Positions 20,822-60,532 of a stretch of 64,000 nucleotides of DNA are shown here, in pieces; the first letter of the stretch is position 1, and each line of letters begins with the position of its first letter. The notes below the pieces were generated by a model. The model worked only from the letters and a program-made list of their open reading frames with translations, was not told where the DNA came from and did no database searches. The stretch covers positions 1,723-65,722 of the forward strand of contig JAGQLO010000001.1 of NCBI GenBank assembly GCA_020429185.1, given 5' to 3'. A program made the position numbers and the translations under genes. Source of the stretch: Candidatus Doudnabacteria bacterium (GTDB taxonomy: Bacteria; Patescibacteriota; JABMPQ01; JAGQLO01).

Positions 20822-22681
20822 CTACTGTTCATCTTCCGCAGTGTCAAGCACAACATCCACCTTTCCAGGCACACGCGGCACATGCTCTACCCAAAACGGC
20901 CAAAATGCCACACGAGCGGCAGCAACGCCGTATTGATCAAAAAGCAAATGCTGCACTTCTTCAGCCGTTTTTCCCTGTAACTGAGCGGAAATTCCCTCTT
21001 CAGGAAGTAGAACAACGACGTCACGATCCATCTGCACATCAAGTTCAAGCACCTCTTCAGTGGTATCGTAAGAAGCTAACGAGAACGTCACCCCTGAAAA
21101 TGTCTTGTCGATAAATGCACGCCCTTCAGGTAGCCTTGGTTGCAACTGTGCAAAAACAGTAGACCGCAAATCCTCTTCTCGATAGGCCAATGTTCTTGCG
21201 GTTACCAACAACTCAAGCTCAAAATCTTCGCGTGCATCTCCCACATCTCCAGTAGAACGCACTTCTATTACATCCGTTCGCAGCGCCTCTTCAAGTACAG
21301 CCTCACCTTCAGCAACCTGCGCACGCAACGACTCAGCTGCAATCGTAACCGCCTCCTCCTTCATGATTGCCACCGCCGCATCCATGTCCTGCTGAGAGAT
21401 AATTCGCTCACCAATTCCAGCATTCGTCCCACCTGTAAACGGTGTGACGCTTTTTCCTGTCATCTTCTCTTGAATAGCAGGCGCCAAACCTGGAATGGTA
21501 AAGGATGTGGGTTCCATATTGTAGTCAGAACCAGGTTGATCAGCCTCCACCTCAACTGTAATCGTTGTCGGAATCAACTCTCCTTCATCACTTACGTCCA
21601 TGCCAGGCACGACAGCATGTTCAATCAGACGAAAGAGTGTTCCATCTTTTGCAAGAAACCGCGTCGTCGCCACGAGTGGTTGCGGAGCCGCAGAATAAGC
21701 GTTTGTAATCGTCACCTCTCCACGTGCCTTTGTTCCCTCTTCTGTTGTGACACCTGTAGCAGCAAAAGAGCGTTTCGGACTCACCTCTTCTACTGCAATA
21801 GGAACACCAGGCACGACACCCGTTGTTGCGTCCATAGCAGAAGCGGAGGCAGAAAGCTGGACGCGCAACTCTTCTTCAAAAGGCTCTCGCTGTGGCTGCA
21901 CAGTAACGGTCGCAGAGGGAAGAACCCACAACAACACACCTCCACCAACAAGGACAGCAATAACCAAGGCGGCAATAACGGCAAAACGTGTCATTCGTGG
22001 CAGCAACGAAACCTTCTGAGGAGCTGGAGAAGACCGACGTAGCACAGAGGCTGATTGCGCGTGTCGTACAGAATGATCTTTCTTTCGTGAATCTTCCCGC
22101 ACAACAAGTTTTTCTTCAGTGGGTTCCACGACGTCCACATCGGAAGCTTCGTATACTCCCTTACTCGAAGTTGCCACTACATCAGAAACAACTGGATCAG
22201 GCAGCGGCGACATTTCAGAAACAACTTCCTGCTGATCAGCCTCATCCAGATGACGCTCTTCCGCCTCATCAACTTCTTCCAGGTCTGAAGCATCGTCTTG
22301 TACCTCATCCGAAACAGCTTTCACGGGAATAGAACGCATCGTAAAATCACGCGGCACTTGTGCTTCCGACTGTTCGCCCACCTCATCAGGAGAAGGAGCC
22401 TGCTCTTCTTCCACGGTTGGATCTAGCTCTTCCGGAACTTCGCTTTGGGCCGTCAATCCAGCCTCAGTAGCAAGATGGCGAATAACCGGATCGGATGTAA
22501 CCAAAGAAAGCTGCAACCCAAGCTTTTGGGACTCACGCTGCAGCAGCTTTAGATTGACAAGGCTCTGCGCCAACATTGAACCTCGCGGTAAGACGAGCAC
22601 AACATCGTCAGACTCCGCATGACGAAACCGATCCACGATATCGGTTATCTCATCTTCGATTTCTGAGTAAAGAAGTTCCAT
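20822..22681 (-). CDS. Hypothetical single-pass membrane protein: STAS-like N-domain, acidic linker, TM, about 365-aa extracytoplasmic domain
   Basis: The N-terminal segment (DVVLVLPRGSMLAQS..LVNLKLLQRESQKLGLQLSLV..DPVIRHLATEAGL) follows the STAS/SpoIIAA hydrophobic pattern. A TM helix lies at about residues 230-252. The gene sits immediately downstream of ftsA. Confidence 0.4.
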   Translation of the reverse strand: MELLYSEIEDEITDIVDRFRHAESDDVVLVLPRGSMLAQSLVNLKLLQRESQKLGLQLSLVTSDPVIRHLATEAGLTAQSEVPEELDPTVEEEQAPSPDEVGEQSEAQVPRDFTMRSIPVKAVSDEVQDDASDLEEVDEAEERHLDEADQQEVVSEMSPLPDPVVSDVVATSSKGVYEASDVDVVEPTEEKLVVREDSRKKDHSVRHAQSASVLRRSSPAPQKVSLLPRMTRFAVIAALVIAVLVGGGVLLWVLPSATVTVQPQREPFEEELRVQLSASASAMDATTGVVPGVPIAVEEVSPKRSFAATGVTTEEGTKARGEVTITNAYSAAPQPLVATTRFLAKDGTLFRLIEHAVVPGMDVSDEGELIPTTITVEVEADQPGSDYNMEPTSFTIPGLAPAIQEKMTGKSVTPFTGGTNAGIGERIISQQDMDAAVAIMKEEAVTIAAESLRAQVAEGEAVLEEALRTDVIEVRSTGDVGDAREDFELELLVTARTLAYREEDLRSTVFAQLQPRLPEGRAFIDKTFSGVTFSLASYDTTEEVLELDVQMDRDVVVLLPEEGISAQLQGKTAEEVQHLLFDQYGVAAARVAFWPFWVEHVPRVPGKVDVVLDTAEDEQ

Positions 22682-22685
22682 ACGA

Positions 22686-24053
22686 TTACGCTGTTTGCAG
22701 AAGACGAACGGCTCGTCGCACTACAGAAGAAAATTCATCCGAAGGCAACAACACTTCCCGAATCGCCTGAGAGGCAAGTCCAAGTGGCGTCACATCCTCC
22801 TGTCCCACAAGAAGTCCCGTCGAGTCACTCATCAGCACCACATCTTGTGGAGACATAAAGTGAATGTTTGGGGGCCGCGAGAACGGAAGGCGCTCAACGA
22901 AGTCAGGATCCATTAACACTTCTTTCATTCCTGGAAGCTTGGAACCTCCACCACAAAGCAATACACGACTTGGCAGAGGTTCTGTCTTTGAAAACTCTTC
23001 CAGAGCAAGAGCAACTCCTTCACGCCAGACCGAAAGATCGCCATCTACTTCGCGTCGAACACGCTCCGCTGACGAAGAAGGCAACATGTTTTCTGAATAC
23101 TTGATTTTGGTCTCTTCAGCCTCTTCAAACGGAAGGTCAAGCGCCTGTGACACACGCCGGGTAAACGCACGCCCGCCTATACCAAACATTTTCGTGCCCT
23201 CAATGACCCCACCACGCACAACTGCGACATCCGTTGTGCCACCACCCACATCAATAAAAATTGCGGAAAACTCCAACTGCTCTCCAACTCCCACAGAAGT
23301 CGCCACCGCATACGGCTCCGCTGTAACGGAGAGAAGATCAAGATCGAGTTGCTCAGCAATGCTTTCTAATGCACCAATATGCACCAACGGTGCATACGCA
23401 TTAAAGATAGAAAGAGCGACATCCTTTCCCTGGAAACCAACGGGTTGTGTGACGCGATATCCGTCGATGCGCACATCCACCACCGAACCCGTAATCAATC
23501 GCACATCGATACCCTGCTGACCTGTTTCACGGACGAGTTGTTGCTTCACTCGCTCAAGTGCACGCCACTGCACCTTATGCACGATGTTCTTCAACTCGGC
23601 TGCATCAATCTTCTGTTCTGGCTTCAATCGTTCATAGCTCACCGTGGTCGTCATTCCTTTTACGAGTTCACCTGCCATCCCTAACACCACTTGAGTTGGA
23701 CGCACTCCTGCTCGCTCGGAAGCCTCAAAAATGGCGCGCTCACAAACCTGTACAACAGCAGCAATATCTCCAACGGCTCCCGCATGCATCGCCCCTAGCG
23801 GCTGCGCCGCGCGACCCGATCCAATCACAACTCCTTCACCTGTCTCTTCATCCACTTCAAAGACCAAAGCCTTTACGACTTCGGTTCCAATATCTAGCGC
23901 GAGATACGATCCGTTTACCGGACCGCTCCGCTTGAACTTTCCAAATAAGGACACAGAAGAATGACAACGAATTGCGAGTGAAGTGTAGCAAACAACACGC
24001 AACAACATCTCTGGATAAAATCGACAGAAGGCAAGAGATTTCTGATCGAACAC
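22686..24053 (-). CDS. ftsA: Cell division protein FtsA (actin-like ATPase). The N-terminal boundary is uncertain and the real start is probably downstream of 24053.
   Basis: LALDIGT phosphate-1 motif, a DVGGGTTDVAV phosphate-2 motif followed by AEETKIKY, and a C-terminal amphipathic tail. Confidence 0.7.
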   Translation of the reverse strand: MFDQKSLAFCRFYPEMLLRVVCYTSLAIRCHSSVSLFGKFKRSGPVNGSYLALDIGTEVVKALVFEVDEETGEGVVIGSGRAAQPLGAMHAGAVGDIAAVVQVCERAIFEASERAGVRPTQVVLGMAGELVKGMTTTVSYERLKPEQKIDAAELKNIVHKVQWRALERVKQQLVRETGQQGIDVRLITGSVVDVRIDGYRVTQPVGFQGKDVALSIFNAYAPLVHIGALESIAEQLDLDLLSVTAEPYAVATSVGVGEQLEFSAIFIDVGGGTTDVAVVRGGVIEGTKMFGIGGRAFTRRVSQALDLPFEEAEETKIKYSENMLPSSSAERVRREVDGDLSVWREGVALALEEFSKTEPLPSRVLLCGGGSKLPGMKEVLMDPDFVERLPFSRPPNIHFMSPQDVVLMSDSTGLLVGQEDVTPLGLASQAIREVLLPSDEFSSVVRRAVRLLQTA

Positions 24054-34610: not shown

Positions 34611-35891
34611 TCATGCATCCAATTCCTCAGAAGAAGCATCTGTAATGAAACGCTTCTGGAATCCGAGCCCTGGAATATCTTGCTTCTTCTGGATCTGCAT
34701 AAGAGAACCTCGACGCACAACCATTTCACCATAGCGATCATTCAAAAGATCACATGCTGCCAACGCAGATTCCATACGATGCGCATCTTTCATAAAGAGT
34801 TGTTGCTGCTCAGCACCCCACTCTAAATTTGAAACAGTAACCCCAACCAATCGCACACGATCCAACAAAAACACAGGTTGAAATAGTTCTTTAACCTGCC
34901 CATAAATCGCGTACCCATCTGAAAGAGGCCGCGACAACGTCACACGTCGACCTTCAGAATGAAACGACTGATAGCGAATACGAATAGAAATAGTGCGACC
35001 TCGCGTCTGCTTACGGCGCAACCTCCTACCCACCTTCTCTGAAAGATGAAGAAAAGTTGCAAGTAGCGCCGCACGGTTAGACGTAGGTTGAATCGTGCGC
35101 TGATGCCCCATCGACTTTTCATCTTTCATGGTATGAAACGACACAACCTGGTCGGAACCCTGCCCAAATGCCACCCCCTTTAACCATCGTGCAGCATGAG
35201 ATCCAAACGAACGCACTAATACATCGGGTGGAATTTCTTGTAATTGAGAAAATGTACGAATTCCAAGACGATGTAGTCTCTTAGAAATCCTTGGACCAAT
35301 ACCACACACATCTGTAAGACGAACCGAACGAATCACGCTCACAGCCCGCTCTGGCGTGATCAAAGTAAGCCCATCCGGCTTTTTCATGTCCGAAGCAAGT
35401 TTCGCAAGAACTTTATTAGGAGCAACGCCAATGGAACACGTCACCCACTCCCCAACCTCCTCTTGAATGCGGTGCTTTAAACGTAATGCGAGTTGTGTCA
35501 CACCACCAAAACGCGAGGCCGTGTCTGTAATATCAATAAACGCTTCATCTGCACTAAACACTTCAACGTTCGGAGAAAACTCCTGATAAATCTCAATGAG
35601 TTGTTTTGTGACATGGGAATACATCGCAAAAGTCGGAGGAACAATTTTCACCTGAGGAAACTCTGCTAAAAGACGATGCGAAGGACTAGGAACCTTAACC
35701 CCTAATTGTTTCGCTTCAACAGAGGCAGTAACCACAACACCTCCATGTCCTTTTCCACCGATGGCAATAGGCACTCCGCGCAGTCGCGGATTCGCCTGCT
35801 GCTCAAGCGTGGCAAAATACGAATTCATGTCGACATGAAGAATCTGTCGAGAACCAGAGGTGTTGGTGTGTTGATCTAGACCGAACGACAT
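34611..35891 (-). CDS. dinB: DNA polymerase IV (Y-family translesion polymerase)
   Basis: ILHVDMNSYFA N-terminus. Start set at MSFGL, preceded by a GGGAGG SD. SOS context. Confidence 0.85.
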   Translation of the reverse strand: MSFGLDQHTNTSGSRQILHVDMNSYFATLEQQANPRLRGVPIAIGGKGHGGVVVTASVEAKQLGVKVPSPSHRLLAEFPQVKIVPPTFAMYSHVTKQLIEIYQEFSPNVEVFSADEAFIDITDTASRFGGVTQLALRLKHRIQEEVGEWVTCSIGVAPNKVLAKLASDMKKPDGLTLITPERAVSVIRSVRLTDVCGIGPRISKRLHRLGIRTFSQLQEIPPDVLVRSFGSHAARWLKGVAFGQGSDQVVSFHTMKDEKSMGHQRTIQPTSNRAALLATFLHLSEKVGRRLRRKQTRGRTISIRIRYQSFHSEGRRVTLSRPLSDGYAIYGQVKELFQPVFLLDRVRLVGVTVSNLEWGAEQQQLFMKDAHRMESALAACDLLNDRYGEMVVRRGSLMQIQKKQDIPGLGFQKRFITDASSEELDA

Positions 35892-35906
35892 ACCTCCCAC
35901 AAACAA

Positions 35907-35936
35907 AAGGCAGAGGTCATCTGACCTCTGCCTTTG
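35907..35936 (-). terminator. Rho-independent terminator (14-bp stem) between doxX and dinB
   Basis: AAAGGCAGAGGTCA-TC-TGACCTCTGCCTTT. On the minus strand it is followed by TTTTGTTTGTG, and the dinB SD follows directly. Confidence 0.45.
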
Positions 35937-35952
35937 AAACAGAAATGTCGAG

Positions 35953-36447
35953 TTATCCAGCTAACAACTGAATCCAACGTTTGTCCTTGGCCCAAGCCGA
36001 GGAAATCAATAACTTGTCGAGACCGCACACTGAACCAGCCCCACCAGCCATAAACAATGCAAATACGAGCATGTACACCACGTGTTCGTCGATCAAGAAG
36101 GAGTGCTCGAATGGATACCCTGAAAGGTAGTAAAAGAGCATCAACACAAATCCCCAAAATGCTGAAAAGCGCGTAAAGAATCCAAAAACTAATGCCAGCC
36201 CAACAAGAGTAAGTCCTAACATATTCAACCAATCGACCGCCGCATTTCCGGCCATCCAAGAGAACCAGGAGGCGAAGGGCCCTTCGAGATGCGAAAGATA
36301 TCCTGTTGCAGACCAACCACCTTCGGTAAAAAGCTTGTCGAGACCAGCGTAAAGCAATACCCATCCAAGGGAGACCCTGAGAGCAACAAGCCAGAATCGG
36401 GAAACCATCGTACGACCCTTCCCACCGGAAGAAGCTGTTTGTTTCAT
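35953..36447 (-). CDS. DoxX-family membrane protein
   Basis: DoxX-like 4-TM protein (VALRVSLGWVLLYAGLDKL ...). Confidence 0.6.
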   Translation of the reverse strand: MKQTASSGGKGRTMVSRFWLVALRVSLGWVLLYAGLDKLFTEGGWSATGYLSHLEGPFASWFSWMAGNAAVDWLNMLGLTLVGLALVFGFFTRFSAFWGFVLMLFYYLSGYPFEHSFLIDEHVVYMLVFALFMAGGAGSVCGLDKLLISSAWAKDKRWIQLLAG

Positions 36448-36624
36448 ACAAAGAAGTGAAGCGACAAACAAAACATAAGCAGTATACTCCTCCTTCAAAG
36501 GATTGTGCGAACAACATGCACATACAGGACATAATTGTCGGAGAACAGCGGGAAACGCCCCGGCATGAGCGCCTCCCGCCGACCCCCGACAGGGTCAAGC
36601 GTAATCCACGAAGATCGATCTCAC

Positions 36625-36891
36625 TTACTCAACGTACAGATCAACCAACTTCCAGGCGAGAGATCCCGTATCAAACGAAAGCTTGAAAAATGCTTCTTCG
36701 TTCGAGGCGGCAAAGTGATACACCCGATCACGTCCCTGACGTTCCTGATAAACAAGATTTACTTTATTGACGGGATACGTACGACCTTCCCACTTAAACA
36801 CCTGAGGACGAACTTTATCTCCATTAAAGAGAGCGGAAACAGATACCGGAGAATCGATTTTTGCGTGCATAAAGAGTAATGAATGAAGCAA
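36625..36891 (-). CDS. Hypothetical small protein (88 aa) in the SOS cassette
   Basis: Non-repetitive ORF between lexA and doxX with no recognisable motif. It may be SOS-regulated. Confidence 0.3.
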   Translation of the reverse strand: MLHSLLFMHAKIDSPVSVSALFNGDKVRPQVFKWEGRTYPVNKVNLVYQERQGRDRVYHFAASNEEAFFKLSFDTGSLAWKLVDLYVE

Positions 36892-37166: not shown

Positions 37167-37793
37167 CTAGTCATAGGCGCGTGTCACCGCTACAACCTTT
37201 CCTTGAATAGTCCATTCGGAGTCAGGGTAAATATCTGGGTAATCAGGATTTTCCGCTTTGAGATAAGCAACGCCATCTTTCATCATGAAGCGTTTCACTG
37301 TGGTCTCACCATCATCGAGCAGAGCCACCACAATGTCCCCATGAGAAGGTTGCACTCCCTGGCGAACCAACACACGATCATCTTCGAGAATGCCCGCGTC
37401 ACGCATACTCTCTCCACGGACTCGCAACAGAAATGTATCTTGAAATCCTCCAACAAGATCTGCAGGCAATGTAATGTTGTCTTCAATATTTTCATCAGCG
37501 AGAACAGGAGTTCCGGCAACAACATCACCAACAAGTGGCACTGATACTGTGTCGCTCGAAAGTGACTCGCCGAGCGTATTCAATACCTCAATACCACGTG
37601 CAGAGGAGTCACGACGGATGTAGCCACCTTCTTCCAAACGTCGCAACAACTTTGCCACAGAATTCTTAGAAGAAACTCCGATAGCAGTTGCCATTTGCGA
37701 AAACGTGGGCGGAACACGTCGTTCGCGAATCTCTTCGATAATGAACTCGAGGAGATGGCGTTGTTTTGGCGTGAGGTCTGACATGTGACTCAT
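37167..37793 (-). CDS. lexA: LexA repressor
   Basis: N-terminal winged HTH; S24 peptidase with the Ser (GESM) / Lys (VKRF) dyad. Confidence 0.9.
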   Translation of the reverse strand: MSHMSDLTPKQRHLLEFIIEEIRERRVPPTFSQMATAIGVSSKNSVAKLLRRLEEGGYIRRDSSARGIEVLNTLGESLSSDTVSVPLVGDVVAGTPVLADENIEDNITLPADLVGGFQDTFLLRVRGESMRDAGILEDDRVLVRQGVQPSHGDIVVALLDDGETTVKRFMMKDGVAYLKAENPDYPDIYPDSEWTIQGKVVAVTRAYD

Positions 37794-37827: not shown

Positions 37828-37839
37828 AAACGATCGTTC
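37828..37839. promoter_or_regulatory. Candidate LexA (Cheo-like) box upstream of lexA
   Basis: GAACGATCGTTT / AAACGATCGTTC near-palindrome (GAAC-N4-GTTy) about 35 bp upstream of the lexA start codon. Confidence 0.3.
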
Positions 37840-37888
37840 ACCTATGGTCAACACCGATTATCCACAAAAGAAAAAGCCTGACACAAGG

Positions 37889-38419
37889 TCAGGACATGCG
37901 CGCGGCCAACCGCTTGAGCGGTTCGGTCAGCTCGGTCAAGATCGCGGGCATCTGGCAGTGCAATACATGATCGAGATCACTACCACCCACGGAAGGAAGC
38001 GACGCACGCAACTCTCGCTGCACATCGGGGTGCAACCCAGCACCGACGACGAGACGAAGCTGCGGACCGGAACGAACGAAGTCCAGCACGTGTCTCACCG
38101 TGTAGATGTTCACGCCACCAGGTCGCTCCAACTCCTCGCCAGGACGCACCACATCCCCCACCAGAAACACCGCCTGAGAAAACAGGTGTGCGCCGCGACC
38201 GAACTGCTTGAACCGCTGCACAGTCACCTGCTCAGCACACGATCCAAGCGTTGCAAGGACGGCCGGAAACCGATCGCCCCAGGCATCGCGTGCACTCATC
38301 CAAAATAGCGTGAGCGGGCGATCCGGAAACGCCTCGACCAGCTTCTTGACGGTCACACGGAGAGCTTCGCTCCCGTGCACCACCTCGGGCAACACGAGCA
38401 ACACGGACAAATCTTCCAA
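37889..38419 (-). CDS. SulA/ImuA-like RecA-fold protein on a GC-rich island (about 60% GC), immediately upstream of lexA
   Basis: The pattern LLVLP ... RPLTLFWMSARDAW resembles the SulA LLLLP ... RWQLWLTPQQKLSREW region. About 175 aa. Probable TTG start after a GGAGG. Confidence 0.35.
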   Translation of the reverse strand: MEDLSVLLVLPEVVHGSEALRVTVKKLVEAFPDRPLTLFWMSARDAWGDRFPAVLATLGSCAEQVTVQRFKQFGRGAHLFSQAVFLVGDVVRPGEELERPGGVNIYTVRHVLDFVRSGPQLRLVVGAGLHPDVQRELRASLPSVGGSDLDHVLHCQMPAILTELTEPLKRLAARMS

Positions 38420-38507
38420 GGGATTCCCCCTCCTCAATAATCCAAGGTTCGTAGAACTACCAAAGCAAAAAGGAGGGGAAAGTCAATCCCACTCCTTTAA
38501 GACACTG

Positions 38508-40325
38508 TTACAAATCCAGGTCGCTGGCACCACCAGAAGAATTCTGAAATGGATCAGGGACAAAAGAGGAATCATCCTGCTGAACCGTTTTTGGAGCCGG
38601 AACAGAACCCGAACGAGAAGATTGATTCTGGGAATCTCCATCCTTCTTGCCCCCCTTCCCTTTGTTGCGAGAGCGATCTTCAGAAGACGAATCAGAGGAG
38701 CCTTTTCCACCATCCTTCAATGCTTCAGCGAACGCCTTCTTAAAGGGTTGTGCGGTTGAACTAGTTCCACCATCTTTTCGTTCATTCTTTTTCTTTTGAA
38801 TCTTCTCAGCCATTCCAGTCAGATTGTTCTTGGCTGCGTTACGATTTTTTTCGGGAGAACGACGCGACTGCCCACTCCCACCTTTTCCACCACCAGAACC
38901 ACCGCGATCTCCTGAAGGACGTCCACCACGGTCGCCACCACCTGAAGAACTGCCTCCGCCACGACTGCCTTTATTGCCGCCCCCTGAATGACGTCCGCCT
39001 GAACCTCCAGATTCGCGACGTGCAGGAGAGCCACTCTCGTCATCAAATCCACTCCATCGCGCAATACGATCTTCTACCAATTCACGATTCGATCCGTATC
39101 GCTCACGCGAAACACGCATGATCGTCTCTCGGTTTCCTTGAGGGTCCCACTCAGGAGGAAGGGTGGCGGCTGAGAACGCAGAAGAAGCAACTCCACGAAT
39201 CATTAGTTTCAACATCACTTCAAATTTCGGAAGGTTCACAAGATCATTTTCTGTGAAGATTGGCTCGAATTCCTTCACCATAAACTCCGCATCGGCTGCG
39301 CCAACACGAAAAGCTACCAACGTTCCGACGTTTCCAAACACCGCATCACGCACAGGCTCTTCAAGCTGCGCAATATACTGGTGTGCCATGATCAAGCACA
39401 GGCGATACTTTCTCGCTTCCGACAGAATGTCTGCAAATGATTCCGTGGCAAAGTTCTGAAACTCGTCAACATACAAATAGAAGTCCTTTCGTTCCTCTTC
39501 GGGAATGTCAGATCGAGACATGGCTGCCAACTGAATCTTGGTGATCACCATGGCACCAAACAGTGCAGATGCGTCCTCACCAATACGACCCTTTGCAAGG
39601 TTCAACAACACAATTTTGTTGTTGTCCATGAGATTCCGCATGTCTAACGTGGACTGCGGCTGTCCCACAATATTGCGAATCAATGAAATCGAAAGGAACT
39701 GACCGACCTTGTTCTGAATAGGAGAAATCGCTTCCGCCTTCAATTTATCGGTGTACTTCGCATACTCATTCACCCAAAATGAGCGAACAACAGGATCTTT
39801 CACTTTTGTAAGCACCTCTTCGCGAAAATCATCGTCGGAAAAGATTCGCAAAATGCCCAGCAATGTAGAACCTGGATACTCCAAAAGTGCCAAGATGGCA
39901 TTTCGCAACAAATACTCCAGACGAGGACCCCAGGAATCTGCCCAAATCTTCTTAAACACCCCCACCAACCCAGCTGACACAAGGTGTCGATACCGAGGAT
40001 CAACCGCCTCCATCACATTGAATGCGATCGGAAAATCAAGATCAGCCGGATCAAAATACACGACGTCGTTCACGCGATGCGATGGCACATAATCCAACAT
40101 CAATTCGGCAAAATCACCGTGTGGATCTACGAGACAGAGGCCATTGCCAGCGTTCATGTCTGACACCACCATATTCTGCAACAACGTCGACTTCCCCATT
40201 CCCGTCTTACCAATCACATACATGTGACGCCGACGATCATCTCGCATGATGCCAAACCGCTTCGCGGCATTACGGAAGTTTGTTTGTCCGAAGACGGTCA
40301 AATCTGTGTCTTGTGCGTCTGGCAT
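38508..40325 (-). CDS. Soluble VirD4/TraG/TrwB-like type IV coupling-protein ATPase with a G/S-rich disordered C-terminal tail
   Basis: Walker A GKTGMGKST, Walker B YLYVDEFQNF, and the T4CP ARKYRLCLIMAHQYIAQL (Q..AQL) motif. No N-terminal TM. The last about 170 aa are low-complexity G/S/R/K-rich. Confidence 0.6.
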   Translation of the reverse strand: MPDAQDTDLTVFGQTNFRNAAKRFGIMRDDRRRHMYVIGKTGMGKSTLLQNMVVSDMNAGNGLCLVDPHGDFAELMLDYVPSHRVNDVVYFDPADLDFPIAFNVMEAVDPRYRHLVSAGLVGVFKKIWADSWGPRLEYLLRNAILALLEYPGSTLLGILRIFSDDDFREEVLTKVKDPVVRSFWVNEYAKYTDKLKAEAISPIQNKVGQFLSISLIRNIVGQPQSTLDMRNLMDNNKIVLLNLAKGRIGEDASALFGAMVITKIQLAAMSRSDIPEEERKDFYLYVDEFQNFATESFADILSEARKYRLCLIMAHQYIAQLEEPVRDAVFGNVGTLVAFRVGAADAEFMVKEFEPIFTENDLVNLPKFEVMLKLMIRGVASSAFSAATLPPEWDPQGNRETIMRVSRERYGSNRELVEDRIARWSGFDDESGSPARRESGGSGGRHSGGGNKGSRGGGSSSGGGDRGGRPSGDRGGSGGGKGGSGQSRRSPEKNRNAAKNNLTGMAEKIQKKKNERKDGGTSSTAQPFKKAFAEALKDGGKGSSDSSSEDRSRNKGKGGKKDGDSQNQSSRSGSVPAPKTVQQDDSSFVPDPFQNSSGGASDLDL

Positions 40326-40346
40326 GACTCTAGACTAGCAAATAGA

Positions 40347-41687
40347 TTAACGTTCGATCGGAAGATCCTGAGGAGGCTGCGCCGAGCGCGTTGCGGAACG
40401 TTCCAGGGATGGCGCCGTCGTCGTACGGTACGGAAAATGAAAGAGCGTTGCTAACTCATCAGTACTCATTCGAACAGGATTCGAACCCGCTCCCATGTCC
40501 CGATAGCGATAATTCGTCACCAGCTTTTGCTGTAAACGAGGAATTTTCCATTTTGCGTAATCACGCTTTGCCTTCGTTTTTCGATCAAGCTTCAATCCAT
40601 TCAAATGCTCGGTATTCACCAACATCAATCCACCTACCGCATTTCCAAAATTCACTTTTTGAAACACTTCATGCTTTGCAATATACACACCCCGCATTTT
40701 TACAACGTAGGCCAGCTTTCCAATATTCTCTTCAACAGCTTTCAACACTTCCCGCTCACCAGGAGAAAGCATAGGAAGATCATCACCATCATCTGCACTG
40801 TCTCCACCCTCAGGAAGAGGAGCGCCAGCCATTGCGCCCAACGTATCTACACCCGTGTGCAAAGCACCAGTGAGAAAACGACCCACAATATCGTCATACT
40901 TTGCCTTACTACGCTTCATCATCTCATCTACAAGCGCCAACCCTTCTTTGCGCATCTTTCCACTTGGGTCAGGGGCCACAATGATTTGAAACCAAATCTG
41001 TTCGCCTTCTCCAAGAGCACCCAATGTTTCAACAAACGCTCCAATAGGATCAATGTAATTGTATTCAGCTTCACCAAGACGGTTTTCGAAGTGTGCGTAC
41101 GTTCGAATCGGATACGCGTCGGGCTTCGTAAAGGTAATATCAGCCCCGTACACCTTCCACGTTTCGTCCGGAAATTTCTTTGGAGCAAACAACGTATAAT
41201 CTTCCACTTCTTGAATTTCTGCATCGGGATACTGCGCGTAAATATGCGCATCAAATGTTGGGCGAATCTTCTTCGGAGTTCGAATCAGAAAACGAACAAA
41301 GCCATTGATACCAACAATCTCAAACGACCAACTCAACTGAAACTCACCCTGAAACCACTTCTCAACGAAGTTTGGACCAGACTCATTCGTCCAAAGCGCT
41401 GTCATCACCTGTTCCATCGCCTTTGGCGTTTTATCATTCTCAGGCGGAACAGTAATCGCGATCAAATCCTTTTCAATGCTCGCAGCAAATTTATTCTGCT
41501 GATACATGAAAAACACGATGTAAAGCAACACAAGCGCAATAGCGATCCAAAGAGGCCACAGCGAACGCAACAAAAAACCATAGATCTCAAAGAAATCTAA
41601 ATAAGAACCAGCGGCACTCTGGCCCAGCTGAGAACCGAGCCCCTCTAATCCAAGATCGATTGTGTATGGTCCGACTTCGAAGTTCAT
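40347..41687 (-). CDS. Hypothetical membrane protein, probably co-transcribed with the T4CP-like ATPase
   Basis: N-terminal TM segment(s) (LWPLWIAIALVLLYIVFFMY) then an about 380-aa soluble domain. A 21-bp gap separates it from the downstream ATPase gene. Confidence 0.45.
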   Translation of the reverse strand: MNFEVGPYTIDLGLEGLGSQLGQSAAGSYLDFFEIYGFLLRSLWPLWIAIALVLLYIVFFMYQQNKFAASIEKDLIAITVPPENDKTPKAMEQVMTALWTNESGPNFVEKWFQGEFQLSWSFEIVGINGFVRFLIRTPKKIRPTFDAHIYAQYPDAEIQEVEDYTLFAPKKFPDETWKVYGADITFTKPDAYPIRTYAHFENRLGEAEYNYIDPIGAFVETLGALGEGEQIWFQIIVAPDPSGKMRKEGLALVDEMMKRSKAKYDDIVGRFLTGALHTGVDTLGAMAGAPLPEGGDSADDGDDLPMLSPGEREVLKAVEENIGKLAYVVKMRGVYIAKHEVFQKVNFGNAVGGLMLVNTEHLNGLKLDRKTKAKRDYAKWKIPRLQQKLVTNYRYRDMGAGSNPVRMSTDELATLFHFPYRTTTAPSLERSATRSAQPPQDLPIER

Positions 41688-41800: not shown

Positions 41801-42919
41801 CTAGTTGTTATTGAGCAGCTCGAACATTCCGTCCTTGTGCTTTTTAAAACGGTCCTTGTCCTGAAGGGCTAGCAGAACAGTGTTCTTTTTCACCATTCGC
41901 TGCTTCAACACTTCGTCTACAATTTCATCTCGTGAAAGCGTTCCTCCAGCATTCTTCAACACGCGCGCAGCAACATCTGCAACGGTTCCAGGCTCATATC
42001 CCCATTCACGTAACGCATAGATACCACGACCCACCAACACAAATCGCTCATCTTTGATCAATTCGTTGTGAACCGTCTGAGGAATAGCAGGTCGCTTTGC
42101 CAAACCAGAAGCGTTAATACGCTCTGTAATGTCGGTGAAGTGCAATGGATCTCCGGCCTTCTTCAAAATAACGTAGGCCTTGTCCTTTACACCCTTCGGG
42201 GAAATTTCAGTCCACTCGGTAAGGCCCCATTCTCCAAACGGGTTCTGACGCACCTTCTTCGAAATCGCAAGATACGAAGCCACAATCTCACCGTCGGTCA
42301 CCACATGACAGTAGGTCTCCGCTTCATCATGGTCCAGAACACACTTCACAGTTGCATCGTGCGGCAATGGCTCACCAGAATCCTGAAGTGACGTAATAAA
42401 GGCGTTAATCACCTGTGTTGGCACATCAAGATCACCCTGCTCCGTTGCCCATGCACGATGTGTCAATTCAGTTTCTGGGTGATGTGTGAATCGATTCGAC
42501 AGCTCAAGCACGAACTCCACAACGTAAGGATTTACCTCACCAGGAGTCCGGTCAGCGAACACATCAAGCACATGATCGTGACGCATGATATTTCCACGCT
42601 CCACAATAATATTCTCGAGAATACTCTCAATAGGAGACAAAACAGAAAGATCCTCCGACTGTCGGAAATCCTTCATAGCTCCCGCCTGAATCTGACGTAC
42701 GCGTTCACGCGTAATGCCGTACGACCTTCCAATTTGCTCAAGCGTACGTGGCTTTTTGCCATCCAATCCAAAACGCTTCACCACAATTTCTTTGGTACGA
42801 GGATTCAAGTCCTTAATATACTCATGCACCATGTTGTGCATATCCATACCAAACTCCGCCGCAGCAGCGGCGTTCGTGCCAGCCTCTGGGGCGGCAGAAT
42901 GTGTAGGAGAAGACATCAT
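41801..42919 (-). CDS. Sigma-70 region 4-only HTH protein with an about 290-aa C-terminal domain of unknown function
   Basis: LNPRTKEIVVKRFGLDGKKPRTLEQIGRSYGITRERVRQIQAGAMKDF is a textbook sigma70_r4. No region 2 is present. Confidence 0.55.
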   Translation of the reverse strand: MMSSPTHSAAPEAGTNAAAAAEFGMDMHNMVHEYIKDLNPRTKEIVVKRFGLDGKKPRTLEQIGRSYGITRERVRQIQAGAMKDFRQSEDLSVLSPIESILENIIVERGNIMRHDHVLDVFADRTPGEVNPYVVEFVLELSNRFTHHPETELTHRAWATEQGDLDVPTQVINAFITSLQDSGEPLPHDATVKCVLDHDEAETYCHVVTDGEIVASYLAISKKVRQNPFGEWGLTEWTEISPKGVKDKAYVILKKAGDPLHFTDITERINASGLAKRPAIPQTVHNELIKDERFVLVGRGIYALREWGYEPGTVADVAARVLKNAGGTLSRDEIVDEVLKQRMVKKNTVLLALQDKDRFKKHKDGMFELLNNN

Positions 42920-43038: not shown

Positions 43039-43066
43039 AGTTTATCACAAAGTTGATATTTGTCAA
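43039..43066 (-). promoter_or_regulatory. Putative sigma-70 promoter for the sigma-r4 gene
   Basis: On the minus strand: TTGACA, 16 nt, TGATAAACT (extended -10). Confidence 0.3.
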
Positions 43067-46753: not shown

Positions 46754-47863
46754 CTACTGATAGTACGCGTATCCATCCACGCGTAAGTCAACATACTGCA
46801 ACGATTCGTATTGATCCTGTATTTCCTCTCGGAATACCGTTTCAAAAATCTTCACTTGCTGTTCTGCCGGGAGTTCGAGCGAAAAGAGAAGCTTCACTCC
46901 CTCGGCTGTAATGACATGAATCTCTGGCCCTTTTGCAGAAGGAAGTTCGAACCGGGCAATCTGCATCGGCAACGTTCGATCAAATAGATCCTGAAGCTGA
47001 TTCGCGTAGTTCAAATGACGCGGAAGCGTTGCCTCATCTCCCACCGCAACACGACGAACTGACAAATCAATAAGCTGAGGCACCTGCTCTTCAAGCAACG
47101 CATCTACCGAAGCGTCACAACACACGCGCCCTTGCGCATCTAAAAAGACAATCTGATCACCAGACACCCATACGGCAGCAATGTTGCGTTCAGCAACATC
47201 AAACGCAATCACATTCGGATACTTACGCGTAATAACCACATCGGACACACGAGGATTCGCCTCGCGCACTGCCTCTTCCAGCGCAGTATCTGAAAGCAAA
47301 AACATGTTATTAAGTGGCACGCCAAGCACCGTTCGTTCAAGTAACGGAGCGGTAGCAAGCCTCAATTCTGCCTGGCTCATACGATGCTGCCCCCGCAACA
47401 CAACTCGTTCTACACGAAAAAAAGAGGAGAAGAACAGTCCATAACTTAACCCGCCCACGAGAATCACAAGAAGTGCACTCAAGGCTCCTGCTCGAAGTTT
47501 CAAAGACGGCAGAGAGGCCAACGAAAAACGTGATTTTCCAGAAGATCGCGCTGCGCGCCGTGAAGACTGAGAACGCCCAGCGGAGCGCAATACACCCTGC
47601 CCGGGCCGACGCTTAGGTATCACCCGACGAGCACTCGCAGGTGCCCCATTGCGCACCACCTTACGAAGATCCACTACTTTTGCGGCACGTGTCGGTGCTT
47701 TAGGTTTCGAACTCGAGAATGAAAACCCCTTGATCTTTACAGGACTTCCAGACGACTTCCCGCCAAAACGAACCCGTTTCTTCGAGGAACGCGAAAGAGC
47801 ACTCTTCCGAGAAGAGCGAGAACGCGAACCCGACCTGTTGTTTTGTGTAAACCGCAGATCCAT
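46754..47863 (-). CDS. FtsQ/DivIB-like cell division protein with a long basic low-complexity N-terminus
   Basis: TM then a POTRA-like domain (RVERVVLRG ... VVITRKYPNVIAFDVAER). The about 115-aa S/R/K-rich N-terminal tail is notable. Start set at MDLRF. Confidence 0.6.
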   Translation of the reverse strand: MDLRFTQNNRSGSRSRSSRKSALSRSSKKRVRFGGKSSGSPVKIKGFSFSSSKPKAPTRAAKVVDLRKVVRNGAPASARRVIPKRRPGQGVLRSAGRSQSSRRAARSSGKSRFSLASLPSLKLRAGALSALLVILVGGLSYGLFFSSFFRVERVVLRGQHRMSQAELRLATAPLLERTVLGVPLNNMFLLSDTALEEAVREANPRVSDVVITRKYPNVIAFDVAERNIAAVWVSGDQIVFLDAQGRVCCDASVDALLEEQVPQLIDLSVRRVAVGDEATLPRHLNYANQLQDLFDRTLPMQIARFELPSAKGPEIHVITAEGVKLLFSLELPAEQQVKIFETVFREEIQDQYESLQYVDLRVDGYAYYQ

Positions 47864-47953
47864 GCACCAGAGTATACAGGATGCACAACGAAGCTCGAAG
47901 TGCACAAGAAGCAAAAAGAAAGAGTCGCACAAAGCGGCTGTCAGTAGAAACTC

Positions 47954-58637: not shown

Positions 58638-60020
58638 TTAGGACCCGAACTTTCGGCCAAACACAACACGAAGAGTTCGAAATAGAATACTAAGGTCCAT
58701 ACGAAGTGACCAGTTTTCCATGTAGTACGTATCCAACCGCACTTCTTCTTCAAAGTCGAGGTCAGAACTTCCAGACACCTGCGCCAACCCTGTCATTCCA
58801 CTATTAATACCGAGAACGCGCCTATGGTGTGCCTCGTACTGCTCCACCTCTGCTGGAAGATGTGGCCGAGGCCCAACCAAGCTCATTTCTCCACGCAAGA
58901 CATTCCACAACTGTGGAAGCTCATCGATACGCGTTGCACGAATGAATCGACCAACCCTTGTCACACGAGGATCATTCTCAATCTTAAATAATGGCCCCGT
59001 TCGCTCATTTTGCTCCATGAGTTTCGCCTTCAGCTTGTCGGCGTCTTTGACCATCGAACGAAATTTCCACAACTTAAACATTCCGGTCTTATTCACACGC
59101 TGCGATCCATAAAAGATAGGGCCAGACGAATCAAGTTTGACCCAAATCGCCGTCACCAAGAAAACAGGTGAAAAAAGCACAAGGAAAAGAAGTGCTCCCA
59201 CAATGTCGATAATGCGCTTCAAAATGCGATACCACCCCTCAAGAGGTGTGTGCCGAATTTCAAACAACGGAATCCCTCCCACATCGTGCACATCAAAGTT
59301 TGAAAGAGTTCCAAACAGATCTGGAACAATCGCAAATTCCCATTTCTGTTCTTCTGAAAGCTGGTGCAATTGCAGCAACAATTCCTGATCAAACGCAGTT
59401 GTATTCGTCACAATCACCTCATCGATACCAGGATTCTTCGCGAACTGCTTGAGTTTTTTCAGGACACCCTCCGACAATGTTTCGTATTCAGCGACCACAT
59501 TGTGACCAAGCGACGCTTTTTGGTAGATCTGTGATAAACGCTCACCCGTCTTCCCATTTCCAAGAATGACAACGCGGTGCAACCCGACACCACGCTTAAA
59601 GAACATCACCCGAATACGACGAAGCAAAAACCGTCCAAGCGTGATACAAGTAACTGCTAACAACCACACTGAAATCACCAAAAAGCGCGACTCATACAGC
59701 TCTCGCGTAAAGAAAACGTACACAATAAAGACGGTCACAGCCACCGTCATCCCAATAAACGCCTTGATCAAATCGTCCGTGACATTGCGATGGCGGCGAA
59801 TCTGATAAAAACCCAATGAGGCAAAAATCAGAAGTGCGACAGGGGCTGCAATAGCAACAAGCTCCAAAAACTCCCAAAGCGTTGTTTCAAACTCAACCGG
59901 ACGCGCCTCTGTAAAGATATCTAAAAACCGCAGACCGAAGGCGGCTGCAGCAGCCAGAAGGATCATGAGGTAATCCAACGGCACCAAAAGCGCAGTGAAC
60001 AATAATTCTGAACGCTTCAT
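58638..60020 (-). CDS. Undecaprenyl-phosphate sugar phosphotransferase (WbaP / bacterial sugar transferase family)
   Basis: C-terminal PRVTRVGRFIRATRIDELPQLWNVLRGEMSLVGPRP signature. Start set at MKRSELLF (60020). Confidence 0.85.
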   Translation of the reverse strand: MKRSELLFTALLVPLDYLMILLAAAAAFGLRFLDIFTEARPVEFETTLWEFLELVAIAAPVALLIFASLGFYQIRRHRNVTDDLIKAFIGMTVAVTVFIVYVFFTRELYESRFLVISVWLLAVTCITLGRFLLRRIRVMFFKRGVGLHRVVILGNGKTGERLSQIYQKASLGHNVVAEYETLSEGVLKKLKQFAKNPGIDEVIVTNTTAFDQELLLQLHQLSEEQKWEFAIVPDLFGTLSNFDVHDVGGIPLFEIRHTPLEGWYRILKRIIDIVGALLFLVLFSPVFLVTAIWVKLDSSGPIFYGSQRVNKTGMFKLWKFRSMVKDADKLKAKLMEQNERTGPLFKIENDPRVTRVGRFIRATRIDELPQLWNVLRGEMSLVGPRPHLPAEVEQYEAHHRRVLGINSGMTGLAQVSGSSDLDFEEEVRLDTYYMENWSLRMDLSILFRTLRVVFGRKFGS

Positions 60021-60095
60021 AACAAAAACAGCGTAGCGACTTTTTACCTCTCCGTCGAGAGAAAAAGTGGTGTATGAAGATGTATGATCTGCTTT

Positions 60096-60532
60096 GAGCG
60101 AACGCGAGTTGTACGCCGAATTTTGTCTACATAACACGCGAACGTGACATGGAGATGGTCATCTATCTAGGCCCATTGTTACCAATAGGCTCGAGCAATC
60201 TACCCGCTGCTCACAACTCGACTCGAGAGCGACTTGTGACAGCCTATATGATCTTGCACCAGATCGGGTTTACCCCACATGCATGTCACCATGCACATCC
60301 GTGAGCTCTTACCTCACACTTTTCAGCCTTACCTGTTCCGTCTTGCGACGGCCATCGGCGGTATATGTCTCTGTGGCACGAGCCCTACACTCCTGTCACT
60401 TCTTGCGAAGCCGCAGTGCGGTTGGCGTTACCAACGATCATGCTCCGCTATTCACATAACGGGGTGTTCGGACGTTCCTCGGGCTCGCTTAGTTGCCTAA
60501 CCGAGCACGCGACCATCCACTCGCATTCGCTC
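60096..60532 (-). ncRNA. rnpB: RNase P RNA (bacterial type), about 437 nt. Found by sequence pattern; not in the ORF track.
   Basis: Minus-strand sequence contains CGAGGAACGTCCG (P4 5' strand), ACCGCCGATGGCCGTCGCAAGACGGAACAGGTAAGGCTGAAAAGTGTGAGGTAAGAGCTCAC, GGGGTAAACCCGATCTGGTGCAAG and GGGCCTAGATAGATGAC. All are close matches to the E. coli M1 RNA conserved regions. P1 pairing: GAGCGAAUGCGAGU / ACUCGCGUUCGCUC. Confidence 0.75.

Follow-up and report, generated by a model that had tools for sequence, protein, structure and literature searches.

A putative split, membrane-tethered VirB4/VirD4-type ATPase module conserved in Patescibacteria

We analysed a 64-kb stretch of DNA (hereafter the window; coordinates are window positions) that is part of a Patescibacteria (candidate phyla radiation, CPR) chromosome, and focused on two adjacent genes that encode a soluble P-loop ATPase and a membrane protein of the DUF8128 family. 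In our preferred reading, to which we give a probability of roughly 0.55, the two genes specify a split, membrane-tethered ATPase module of the VirB4/VirD4 type that acts as one functional unit, derives from conjugation, belongs to the core gene set of Patescibacteria and handles DNA at the membrane. This reading draws on (i) the homology and fold of both halves, (ii) their fusion in phage and plasmid relatives, (iii) a conserved gene trio, (iv) its housekeeping context and (v) its independence from virB4 loci and SOS genes. A preliminary description of the same DNA had proposed that a soluble ATPase of the coupling type is paired with a membrane partner encoded apart, is linked to the SOS genes and may be left over from a mobile element. 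The first part is supported and sharpened here, whereas the SOS and mobile-remnant framing is not supported.

The open reading frame (ORF) list gives both genes on the minus strand with ATG starts and a gap of 21 bp, exactly as first described. The features of the module and of the gene that precedes it are:

38508..40325 (-), ATPase gene: soluble P-loop ATPase of 605 amino acids (aa), with a core (residues 1-430) followed by a tail
40188..40211 (-), Walker A, GKTGMGKS, residues 39-46
39462..39476 (-), Walker B, LYVDE, residues 284-288
39363..39416 (-), ARKYRLCLIMAHQYIAQL motif, residues 304-321, which aligns to the RK...Q...QL motif of TrwB
38511..39035 (-), predicted disordered, basic G/S/K/R-rich tail, residues 431-605
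40347..41687 (-), DUF8128 gene: 446 aa, PF26449, with an N-terminal membrane helix and a cytoplasmic domain
41496..41585 (-), sole hydrophobic membrane segment of the DUF8128 protein, residues 35-64
40431..40460 (-), DELATLFHFP motif, residues 410-419, near the C-terminus of the DUF8128 protein
41801..42919 (-), sigma-region-4/HARE-HTH gene: 372 aa, first gene of the conserved trio

The ATPase carries the hallmarks claimed for it as a type IV coupling protein (T4CP). Walker A, Walker B and the ARKYRLCLIMAHQYIAQL motif are all present, in columns that are invariant across 44 homologues (i.e. G39 to K45 in Walker A; D287 and E288 in Walker B; A304, R305, K306, Y307, H315, Q316, Q320 and L321 in the ARKYRLCLIMAHQYIAQL motif). 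Hydropathy reaches 1.6 in no 19-residue segment, so the protein lacks a membrane anchor of its own, as had been proposed. Its C-terminal tail, earlier put at about 170 aa, is 175 aa long (39 G, 32 S, 18 K and 14 R), has a net charge of +13 and is predicted to be disordered (predicted local distance difference test, pLDDT, <50). A zinc ribbon (CxxC-x17-CxxC, PF23477) stands in place of this tail in many homologues, and a QPFK-type motif is common to both tail forms.

Profile searches with the ATPase favour T4CPs in part: the Pfam models TrwB_AAD_bind (36.1 bits) and TraG-D_C (28.5 bits) are both above cutoff and PF02534 lies exactly at its cutoff (20.1), with no single stretch passing alone, but DUF87/HerA (PF01935) is equally strong (36.6 bits; cutoff 23.2). 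Pfam FtsK_SpoIIIE falls below its cutoff (16.8 vs 24), and the protein does not qualify as an FtsK motor domain. The NCBIfam T4CP, VirB4 and Ced models all match around the P-loop only and far under cutoff. This applies to the curated T4CP models TIGR03743 (36.9 vs 366), NF045973 (34.7 vs 250) and TIGR02759 (21.2 vs 521) and to the VirB4 model TIGR00929 (19.7 bits vs 643); the CedD match, confined to the P-loop region, is weak (E 2.6e-5). When PDB sequences were searched with a profile of the 44 homologues, TrwB and DotL were the only matches. In the comparison table, the figures listed for the ATPase are 26.6 for the DptH C-domain, 26.6 for the VirB4 C-terminal domain, 24.6 for TrwB, 22.1 for DotL, 21.0 for HerA, 20.5 for Cag-beta and 15.3 for FtsK. 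The protein has a nucleotide-binding domain with Walker A and B and an inserted all-alpha domain, and also a VirB4-type C-terminal ATPase domain. It shares the DUF87 central domain with HerA; HerA is not its closest fold, and a NurA or effector partner is absent. The comparison results therefore place the ATPase in the VirB4/VirD4 branch of the FtsK-HerA superfamily, without placing it with either one.

The membrane partner is assigned to DUF8128 (PF26449) through precomputed matches on a 100%-identical database protein (P0121) and on almost all listed homologues; the family comprises 3,936 clusters at 50% identity in a representative library. In its alignment, an N-terminal membrane helix precedes a conserved globular domain, and the C-terminus (EELATxxHFP...PPxxLP) is conserved as well. 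The N-terminal anchor noted earlier is borne out by a single hydrophobic segment, which is likewise found in most of 54 homologues. E411, A413, H417 and P419 of the DELATLFHFP motif are invariant, and the motif is aligned in gp156 of phage G.

An AlphaFold2 model of the DUF8128 protein (pLDDT 82.7; predicted template modelling score, pTM, 0.76) was compared with known structures by Foldseek. The best 13 matches, including all nine at E <= 0.001, are chains of TrwK, and the next-best fold match is EccE of the type VII protein-secretion system. A search of PDB sequences with the DUF8128 profile returned nothing even at E 10, and fold comparison alone gave matches. DUF8128 lacks a P-loop and no RecA-like ATPase occurs among its fold matches, not even a VirB4 structure that holds only the C-terminal domain; its match would therefore be to the N-terminal domain of VirB4. 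On this model, the cytoplasmic part of DUF8128 appears to have the fold of the VirB4 N-terminal domain, and not that of VirB6, VirB8 or PrgH, the types to which the preliminary description had looked. We also considered DUF8128 as the counterpart of TrsD of pSK41. Comparison by hhalign shows no detectable similarity (E 0.23), and DUF8128 is thus not equated with the TrsD homologues counted in the literature.

Both halves occur as single chains in phages and plasmids. In the phage family phrog_5156 (824 positions), DUF8128 matches positions 24-205 and the ATPase matches positions 408-805 (E 5.5e-62). Searches by tblastn found 63 phage records, chiefly of Bacillus phages; gp156 of phage G (825 aa) and gp27.4 of SPO1 (906 aa) are among them. 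The DUF8128 profile aligns by hhalign to residues 15-324 of gp156 with a probability of 97.7% (E 2e-12), and the alignment spans the ELAT..H.P motif. A further 334 matches to the ATPase core come from plasmids (Streptomyces, Bacillus, Staphylococcus, haloarchaea and Sulfolobus), of which 269 lie on plasmids typed as non-mobilizable, and DUF8128 matches the N-terminus of 'DUF87' proteins of Shouchella and Peribacillus plasmids. We examined four fused genes, in the following regions:

L165 2747..6284, SPO1
L166 1196..5338, phage G
L170 2255..9331, Embleya plasmid NZ_CP108778
L171 6863..10410, Shouchella plasmid NZ_CP012476

All four single chains match both hidden Markov models in N-to-C order (DUF8128, E 2e-23 to 2e-7; ATPase, E 3e-78 to 1.5e-22). 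A Replic_Relax gene lies 3' of the fused gene in three of the four, and the fused plasmid copies sit among genes for PrgI, a VirB4-like ATPase, NlpC/P60 and conjugal transfer. These neighbourhoods indicate that the relatives hold the coupling-ATPase position of monoderm conjugation-like modules.

Two further observations concern these relatives. Phage G encodes another TraG/VirB4-like ATPase (gp155) just 5' of the fused gp156, and coupling-type ATPases and relaxase-like proteins recur as a gene pair even in lytic phages. The nearest plasmid relative of the ATPase core (L169 6983..8170; 43% identity over 90% of the core) is a stand-alone protein of 395 aa on a non-mobilizable alphaproteobacterial plasmid, NZ_CP081110 of Sulfitobacter mediterraneus. 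Its gene lies between a recombinase and transposases, with no DUF8128-like gene annotated beside it.

In Patescibacteria the two genes form a trio in the order sigma-region-4/HARE-HTH, DUF8128, ATPase. We compared 84 ATPase-centred loci (one genome per species) and 70 DUF8128-centred loci (from metagenomes). In 67 of the 84, the gene immediately upstream of the ATPase is DUF8128, and upstream sequence is missing in two more; conversely, the ATPase lies directly downstream of DUF8128 in 49 of the 70. Because the genes are so often adjacent and are fused in phage and plasmid relatives, the pairing and its proposed synteny across relatives stand. The sigma-region-4/HARE-HTH gene is kept across Patescibacteria and precedes DUF8128 in 58 of 82 ATPase loci. 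Across classes, identity is 62-70% for the ATPase core and 28-53% for DUF8128 and the sigma-region-4/HARE-HTH protein, and the ATPase is conserved above its housekeeping neighbours. Presence of the trio in nearly every genome, together with this degree of conservation, implies that it must serve something central. Neighbours belonging to a type IV secretion system (T4SS) occur in none of the 82 ATPase loci, where the surroundings are housekeeping genes: SecD/SecF upstream of the trio (directly in 32 loci) and, downstream, MnmA and AlaRS as well as, in many loci, GT2, DivIC, D-Ala-D-Ala carboxypeptidase and FtsE/FtsX.

Fifteen loci have upstream sequence but no DUF8128, and 13 of these form one derived clade (L009 8940..14600, L012, L013, L025, L027, L029, L030, L033, L052, L058, L059, L061 and L064). 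We considered whether these copies are a paralogue and rejected this, because the clade is nested among partner-bearing loci. Here the ATPase has parted from DUF8128 and sits after NrdD-NrdG. An ORF of 93-155 aa lies directly 5' of it in 11 of the 13 loci (with one C-terminal membrane helix in the two inspected), and a DEDD/RNase_T exonuclease gene lies 3' of it in about ten, with overlapping stop and start in L009, followed by GT2, DivIC, PBP and FtsE/FtsX.

Some records of the data set deserve separate mention. The same CPR-type trio and neighbours occur in many records titled 'uncultured Gammaproteobacteria', 'Bdellovibrionales' and 'Planctomycetota' (L006, L011, L012, L015, L020, L036 and others); these are probably mislabelled metagenome-assembled genomes (MAGs) rather than a spread of the module beyond Patescibacteria. 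On another Patescibacteria contig, L132 3..821 (-) encodes a canonical FtsK motor that shares 42% identity with Escherichia coli FtsK across 295 aa; a DUF8128 gene without a neighbouring ATPase gene lies 5 kb away.

The first protein of the trio had been described as a regulator with sigma region 4 only, which proved incomplete: it also contains a HARE-HTH domain (PF05066, E 4e-15, residues ~244-306). Its N-terminal sigma-70 region 4 (residues ~35-84) matches primary sigma factors (RpoD/SigA, E 2e-20), and sigma regions 1-3 are absent. Judged from its domains, the protein could compete for -35 elements or for the beta-flap of RNA polymerase. Literature searches on HARE-HTH together with sigma returned nothing relevant, and no paper on this protein was found. 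The idea that the gene is a disguised relaxase was dropped because hhalign of its profile against a Replic_Relax protein finds no similarity.

The surroundings in the window are those of an ordinary chromosome. GC content varies little (0.47-0.52), the GC skew stays negative throughout and nearly all genes lie on the minus strand. They encode MraY, Lgt, pentose-phosphate enzymes, RpoA, S4, AlaRS, MnmA, endonuclease III, LepA, MurJ, glycosyltransferases, RecJ and RNase P RNA. A Candidatus Andersenbacteria MAG encodes a protein 100% identical to the ATPase, and a protein labelled Candidatus Doudnabacteria is 100% identical to its partner. No VirB4, relaxase or pilin gene and no further copy of the ATPase or DUF8128 gene was found in the 64 kb. 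The module is not a mobile-element remnant in this genome, and the proposed conjugative-element remnant holds only as a deep evolutionary origin. The elements flanking the trio are:

43039..43066 (-), best promoter-like site before the trio, TTGACA-16-TAAACT with extended TG (a consensus match only)
37889..38437 (-), ORF of 182 aa directly 3' of the ATPase gene, between it and lexA
37877..37893 (-), terminator-like hairpin with a T-run at the end of the 182-aa ORF, which separates the module from lexA
37167..37793 (-), lexA, downstream of the ATPase gene
34611..35906 (-), Y-family polymerase gene, downstream of lexA

The 182-aa ORF has no family match and is not kept in relatives; it is possibly the last gene of the module's transcription unit. 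The reported run of lexA, SulA-like and dinB genes directly downstream on the same strand is correct for lexA and the Y-family polymerase, but the 182-aa ORF intervenes and no SulA-like gene was found among the ORFs between lexA and the polymerase. These include a DoxX-like ORF (35953..36498, E 8e-9) and a weakly DUF6504-like ORF (36625..36891, E 5e-5, under the Pfam cutoff). A 240-aa ORF at 35876..36598 looks spurious (it is Cys/Trp-rich), and the DoxX-like ORF in another frame is the likely gene.

The suggested link to the damage response finds no support. DinB or LexA occurs near the ATPase in only three of the 84 loci (the window, L001 and L004), and a shared orientation with lexA and the polymerase is uninformative because nearly all window genes lie on that strand. 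Here lexA forms a transcription unit of its own: it has a promoter-like site (37884..37857) and a Cheo-type box, GAACGATCGTTT (37828..37839), and the terminator-like hairpin (37893..37877) stands directly ahead of these; by its sequence lexA looks like an autoregulated unit of the Gram-positive type in a CPR genome. We rejected SOS regulation of the trio, since the box GAACNNNNGTTY is found ahead of lexA and absent ahead of the trio, and the pattern occurs in the window as often as expected by chance.

Elsewhere in the window, a gene for bacterial class A RNase P RNA (60096..60528 (-), 208.6 bits) partly overlaps the called end of a sugar-transferase ORF (58638..60137). In addition, at 20822..24053 (-), the gene for a 619-aa protein whose Baseplate_J-like match is weak (E 8e-5) stands beside that of an FtsA/PilM-like actin-fold protein.

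Orphan coupling-protein homologues have been reported in Patescibacteria before. Quinonero-Coronel et al. (2025; PMC12102498) counted 5,713 VirD4-type homologues in 2,918 of 3,035 genomes, only 148 of them near virB4, and found VirB4 in 2,417 genomes and relaxases to be scarce (109 in 103 genomes). In Southlakia the t4cp gene is non-essential and the T4SS essential, and exaptation of t4cp 'cannot be ruled out' according to these authors (PMC12102498). Wang et al. (2023; PMC10633639) described a Southlakia T4SS cluster without a recognizable coupling protein. The abundance of these homologues is thus already published, while the identity of the partner, the trio and the fusion evidence appear to be undescribed in the literature searched, in which DUF8128 is not named.

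Under our preferred reading, the two genes would form one hexameric VirB4/VirD4-type ATPase module, in which DUF8128 is the docking subunit, anchored in the membrane, and the ATPase the soluble motor. It would have originated as the coupling-type ATPase of monoderm conjugation-like elements and then become fixed, with the sigma-region-4/HARE-HTH protein, as a vertically inherited core gene set of Patescibacteria. DUF8128 would tether the ATPase to the cytoplasmic side of the membrane, in the manner of the N-terminal domain of VirB4, and the ATPase would spend ATP on moving or remodelling nucleic acid, most likely DNA, gripped via its basic or zinc-ribbon tail. The sigma-region-4/HARE-HTH protein may provide DNA recognition or regulate the operon. 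The process served would probably be non-essential DNA traffic at the membrane (e.g. uptake or processing of incoming DNA) and not conjugation, a role that would fit the dispensability of the Southlakia gene. That the substrate is nucleic acid is probable in view of the DNA-binding neighbour, the zinc-ribbon or RGG-like tail, the relaxase-linked relatives and the DEDD exonuclease in the derived clade.

Several points weigh against this reading. About 30% of the DUF8128-centred loci have no adjacent ATPase; physical contact between DUF8128 and the ATPase is suggested by fusion and synteny; and the assignment of DUF8128 to the N-terminal domain comes from missing P-loop motifs and missing ATPase matches, not from residue ranges of TrwK. 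No channel or substrate was recognized for the module, and DNA pumping is not known for VirB4 proteins. The link to DNA is circumstantial, as basic disordered tails can also bind lipids or proteins, and the sigma-region-4/HARE-HTH gene could be a mere operon neighbour with a role related to RNA polymerase.

A bolder extension, which we put forward tentatively and regard as improbable, is that the trio is a radiation-wide domesticated conjugation motor, i.e. the cytoplasmic engine of DNA acquisition or processing, possibly behind ComEC or type IV pili, with the sigma-region-4/HARE-HTH protein as DNA adaptor. If so, the motor would draw in or pass on DNA, foreign or from the host, at the membrane and would feed recombination and nucleotide salvage in organisms unable to make nucleotides.

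Among the alternatives to our preferred reading, the likeliest is that the ATPase is a genuine coupling protein of the Patescibacteria T4SS, encoded apart and feeding substrates in trans, with DUF8128 as a membrane adaptor. The T4CP-type Pfam/NCBIfam matches, TrwB and DotL as the sole PDB sequence matches, and the T4CP position of the fused relatives beside relaxase-type genes in plasmid T4SS clusters agree with it, as do the frequent distance of t4cp genes from virB4 (PMC12102498) and the lack of a recognizable coupling protein in the T4SS cluster of Southlakia itself (PMC10633639). It is nevertheless doubtful. Homologues are present in 2,918 of the 3,035 genomes, against 2,417 for VirB4, and just 148 copies lie near virB4; Southlakia can do without its copy but not without its T4SS; relaxases are nearly absent (109 in 103 genomes); T4SS neighbours are found in 0 of 82 loci; and the core is much more conserved than usual T4SS parts.

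Alternatively, the substrate may not be DNA, and the pair could be a VirB4-like dislocase or energizer for membrane or secreted proteins (e.g. pilins or cell-envelope biogenesis factors). VirB4 energizes pilin extraction and machine assembly, a role that speaks for such a function here. Both halves match VirB4 no worse than T4CPs, EccE of type VII secretion is the second fold match of DUF8128, SecD/SecF lies directly upstream in 32 loci, and GT2, DivIC, D-Ala-D-Ala carboxypeptidase and FtsEX lie downstream in many. However, these neighbours may reflect conserved housekeeping synteny only, and the DNA-binding neighbour, the zinc-ribbon or RGG-like tail and the relaxase-linked fused relatives favour nucleic acid, which leaves the dislocase an unlikely explanation.

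A DNA pump for chromosome segregation or the division site, in the role of FtsK/SpoIIIE, is less plausible still. The module is a membrane-tethered ATPase of the FtsK-HerA superfamily, and division genes are often near it (a gene for an FtsQ-like POTRA protein at 46754..47932 in the window; DivIC, FtsE/FtsX and FtsZ elsewhere). However, a canonical FtsK motor (the one 42% identical to that of E. coli) is encoded on L132, 5 kb from a DUF8128 gene, TM7x has a separately annotated ftsK (PMC10768705) and the FtsK_SpoIIIE score of the ATPase is under the Pfam cutoff. Finally, a HerA-type helicase or defence ATPase (Dnd/Dpt, MADS or HerA-effector), or what is left of an SOS-linked integrated conjugative element, seems very improbable: the above-cutoff DUF87 score, a PADLOC match to mad8 (E 7.6e-16) with weak HerA matches, and the downstream lexA and Y-family polymerase genes speak for it, but the PADLOC matches in the window are to generic ATPase and sigma-region-4 models only, no nuclease, Sir2, NurA, methylase or other defence partner lies nearby, SOS adjacency is limited to 3 of 84 loci with lexA in its own transcription unit, GC content is uniform, the surroundings are housekeeping genes, and, in contrast to defence islands or remnants of conjugative elements, the module is found almost universally, is passed on vertically and is highly conserved.

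Patescibacteria account for much of bacterial diversity; their genomes are tiny, and they rely on hosts to supply nucleotides and other building blocks. The module genes currently bear a generic label, i.e. 'type IV secretion DNA-binding protein' and a DUF. In our preferred reading of a split module, DUF8128 would supply the missing VirB4-like N-terminal half together with the membrane anchor. These findings make the function approachable by experiment in the two genetically tractable Saccharibacteria, and they call for caution in surveys, where the module genes should not be counted as T4SS components.

We then compared the module with known systems. T4CPs (VirD4/TrwB/TraD/DotL) share with the ATPase a RecA-like domain with a helical insertion, Walker A and B, the RK...Q motif and a variable C-terminal tail. 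They differ in carrying an N-terminal transmembrane domain on the same chain, which the ATPase lacks (its Walker A begins at residue 39); here a second protein, with a VirB4-type domain, provides the anchor, neither a relaxase nor a T4SS is encoded nearby, and the module is chromosomal, near-universal and highly conserved in one radiation. The proposed split coupling protein is thus right in that the partner is genuine (adjacent in 67 of 84 loci and fused in relatives), but 'split VirB4/VirD4-type ATPase' fits the pair better than 'classical T4CP' does. As for VirB4 (TrwK of R388 and VirB4 of T. pseudethanolicus), DUF8128 appears to share its N-terminal domain. In contrast to VirB4, the module consists of two polypeptides, the protein with the N-terminal domain has its own membrane helix, and a single chain, a curated-model match and VirB3, VirB6 or VirB8 neighbours are all lacking. 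A separate, bona fide VirB4 exists in Patescibacteria (PMC12102498).

TrsD and TrsE (pSK41/pGO1) are alike in concept, as a VirB4 N-terminal-like protein or membrane adaptor is encoded apart from the ATPase. TraI/TraJ of pIP501 and TraJ/TraG of R27 are, we assume, further pairs of a membrane adaptor and a T4CP without transmembrane segments. VirB4/HerA-like ATPases power DNA uptake, not conjugation, in ComB4 of Helicobacter pylori and in the archaeal Ced system (CedB). Polytopic channel proteins are encoded alongside these and none at the module, and the likeness is speculation about function. The fused phage and plasmid proteins are direct homologues of both halves in the same order, and the Embleya protein also has an N-terminal hydrophobic segment. 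They differ in being single chains of 810-906 aa, with Replic_Relax next to them in three of four cases and no sigma-region-4/HARE-HTH neighbour; the module consists of two genes with 21 bp between them, and PF13814 is absent from its surroundings. The Patescibacteria pair can thus be viewed as a split form of the relaxase-associated ATPases of Gram-positive plasmids and phages.

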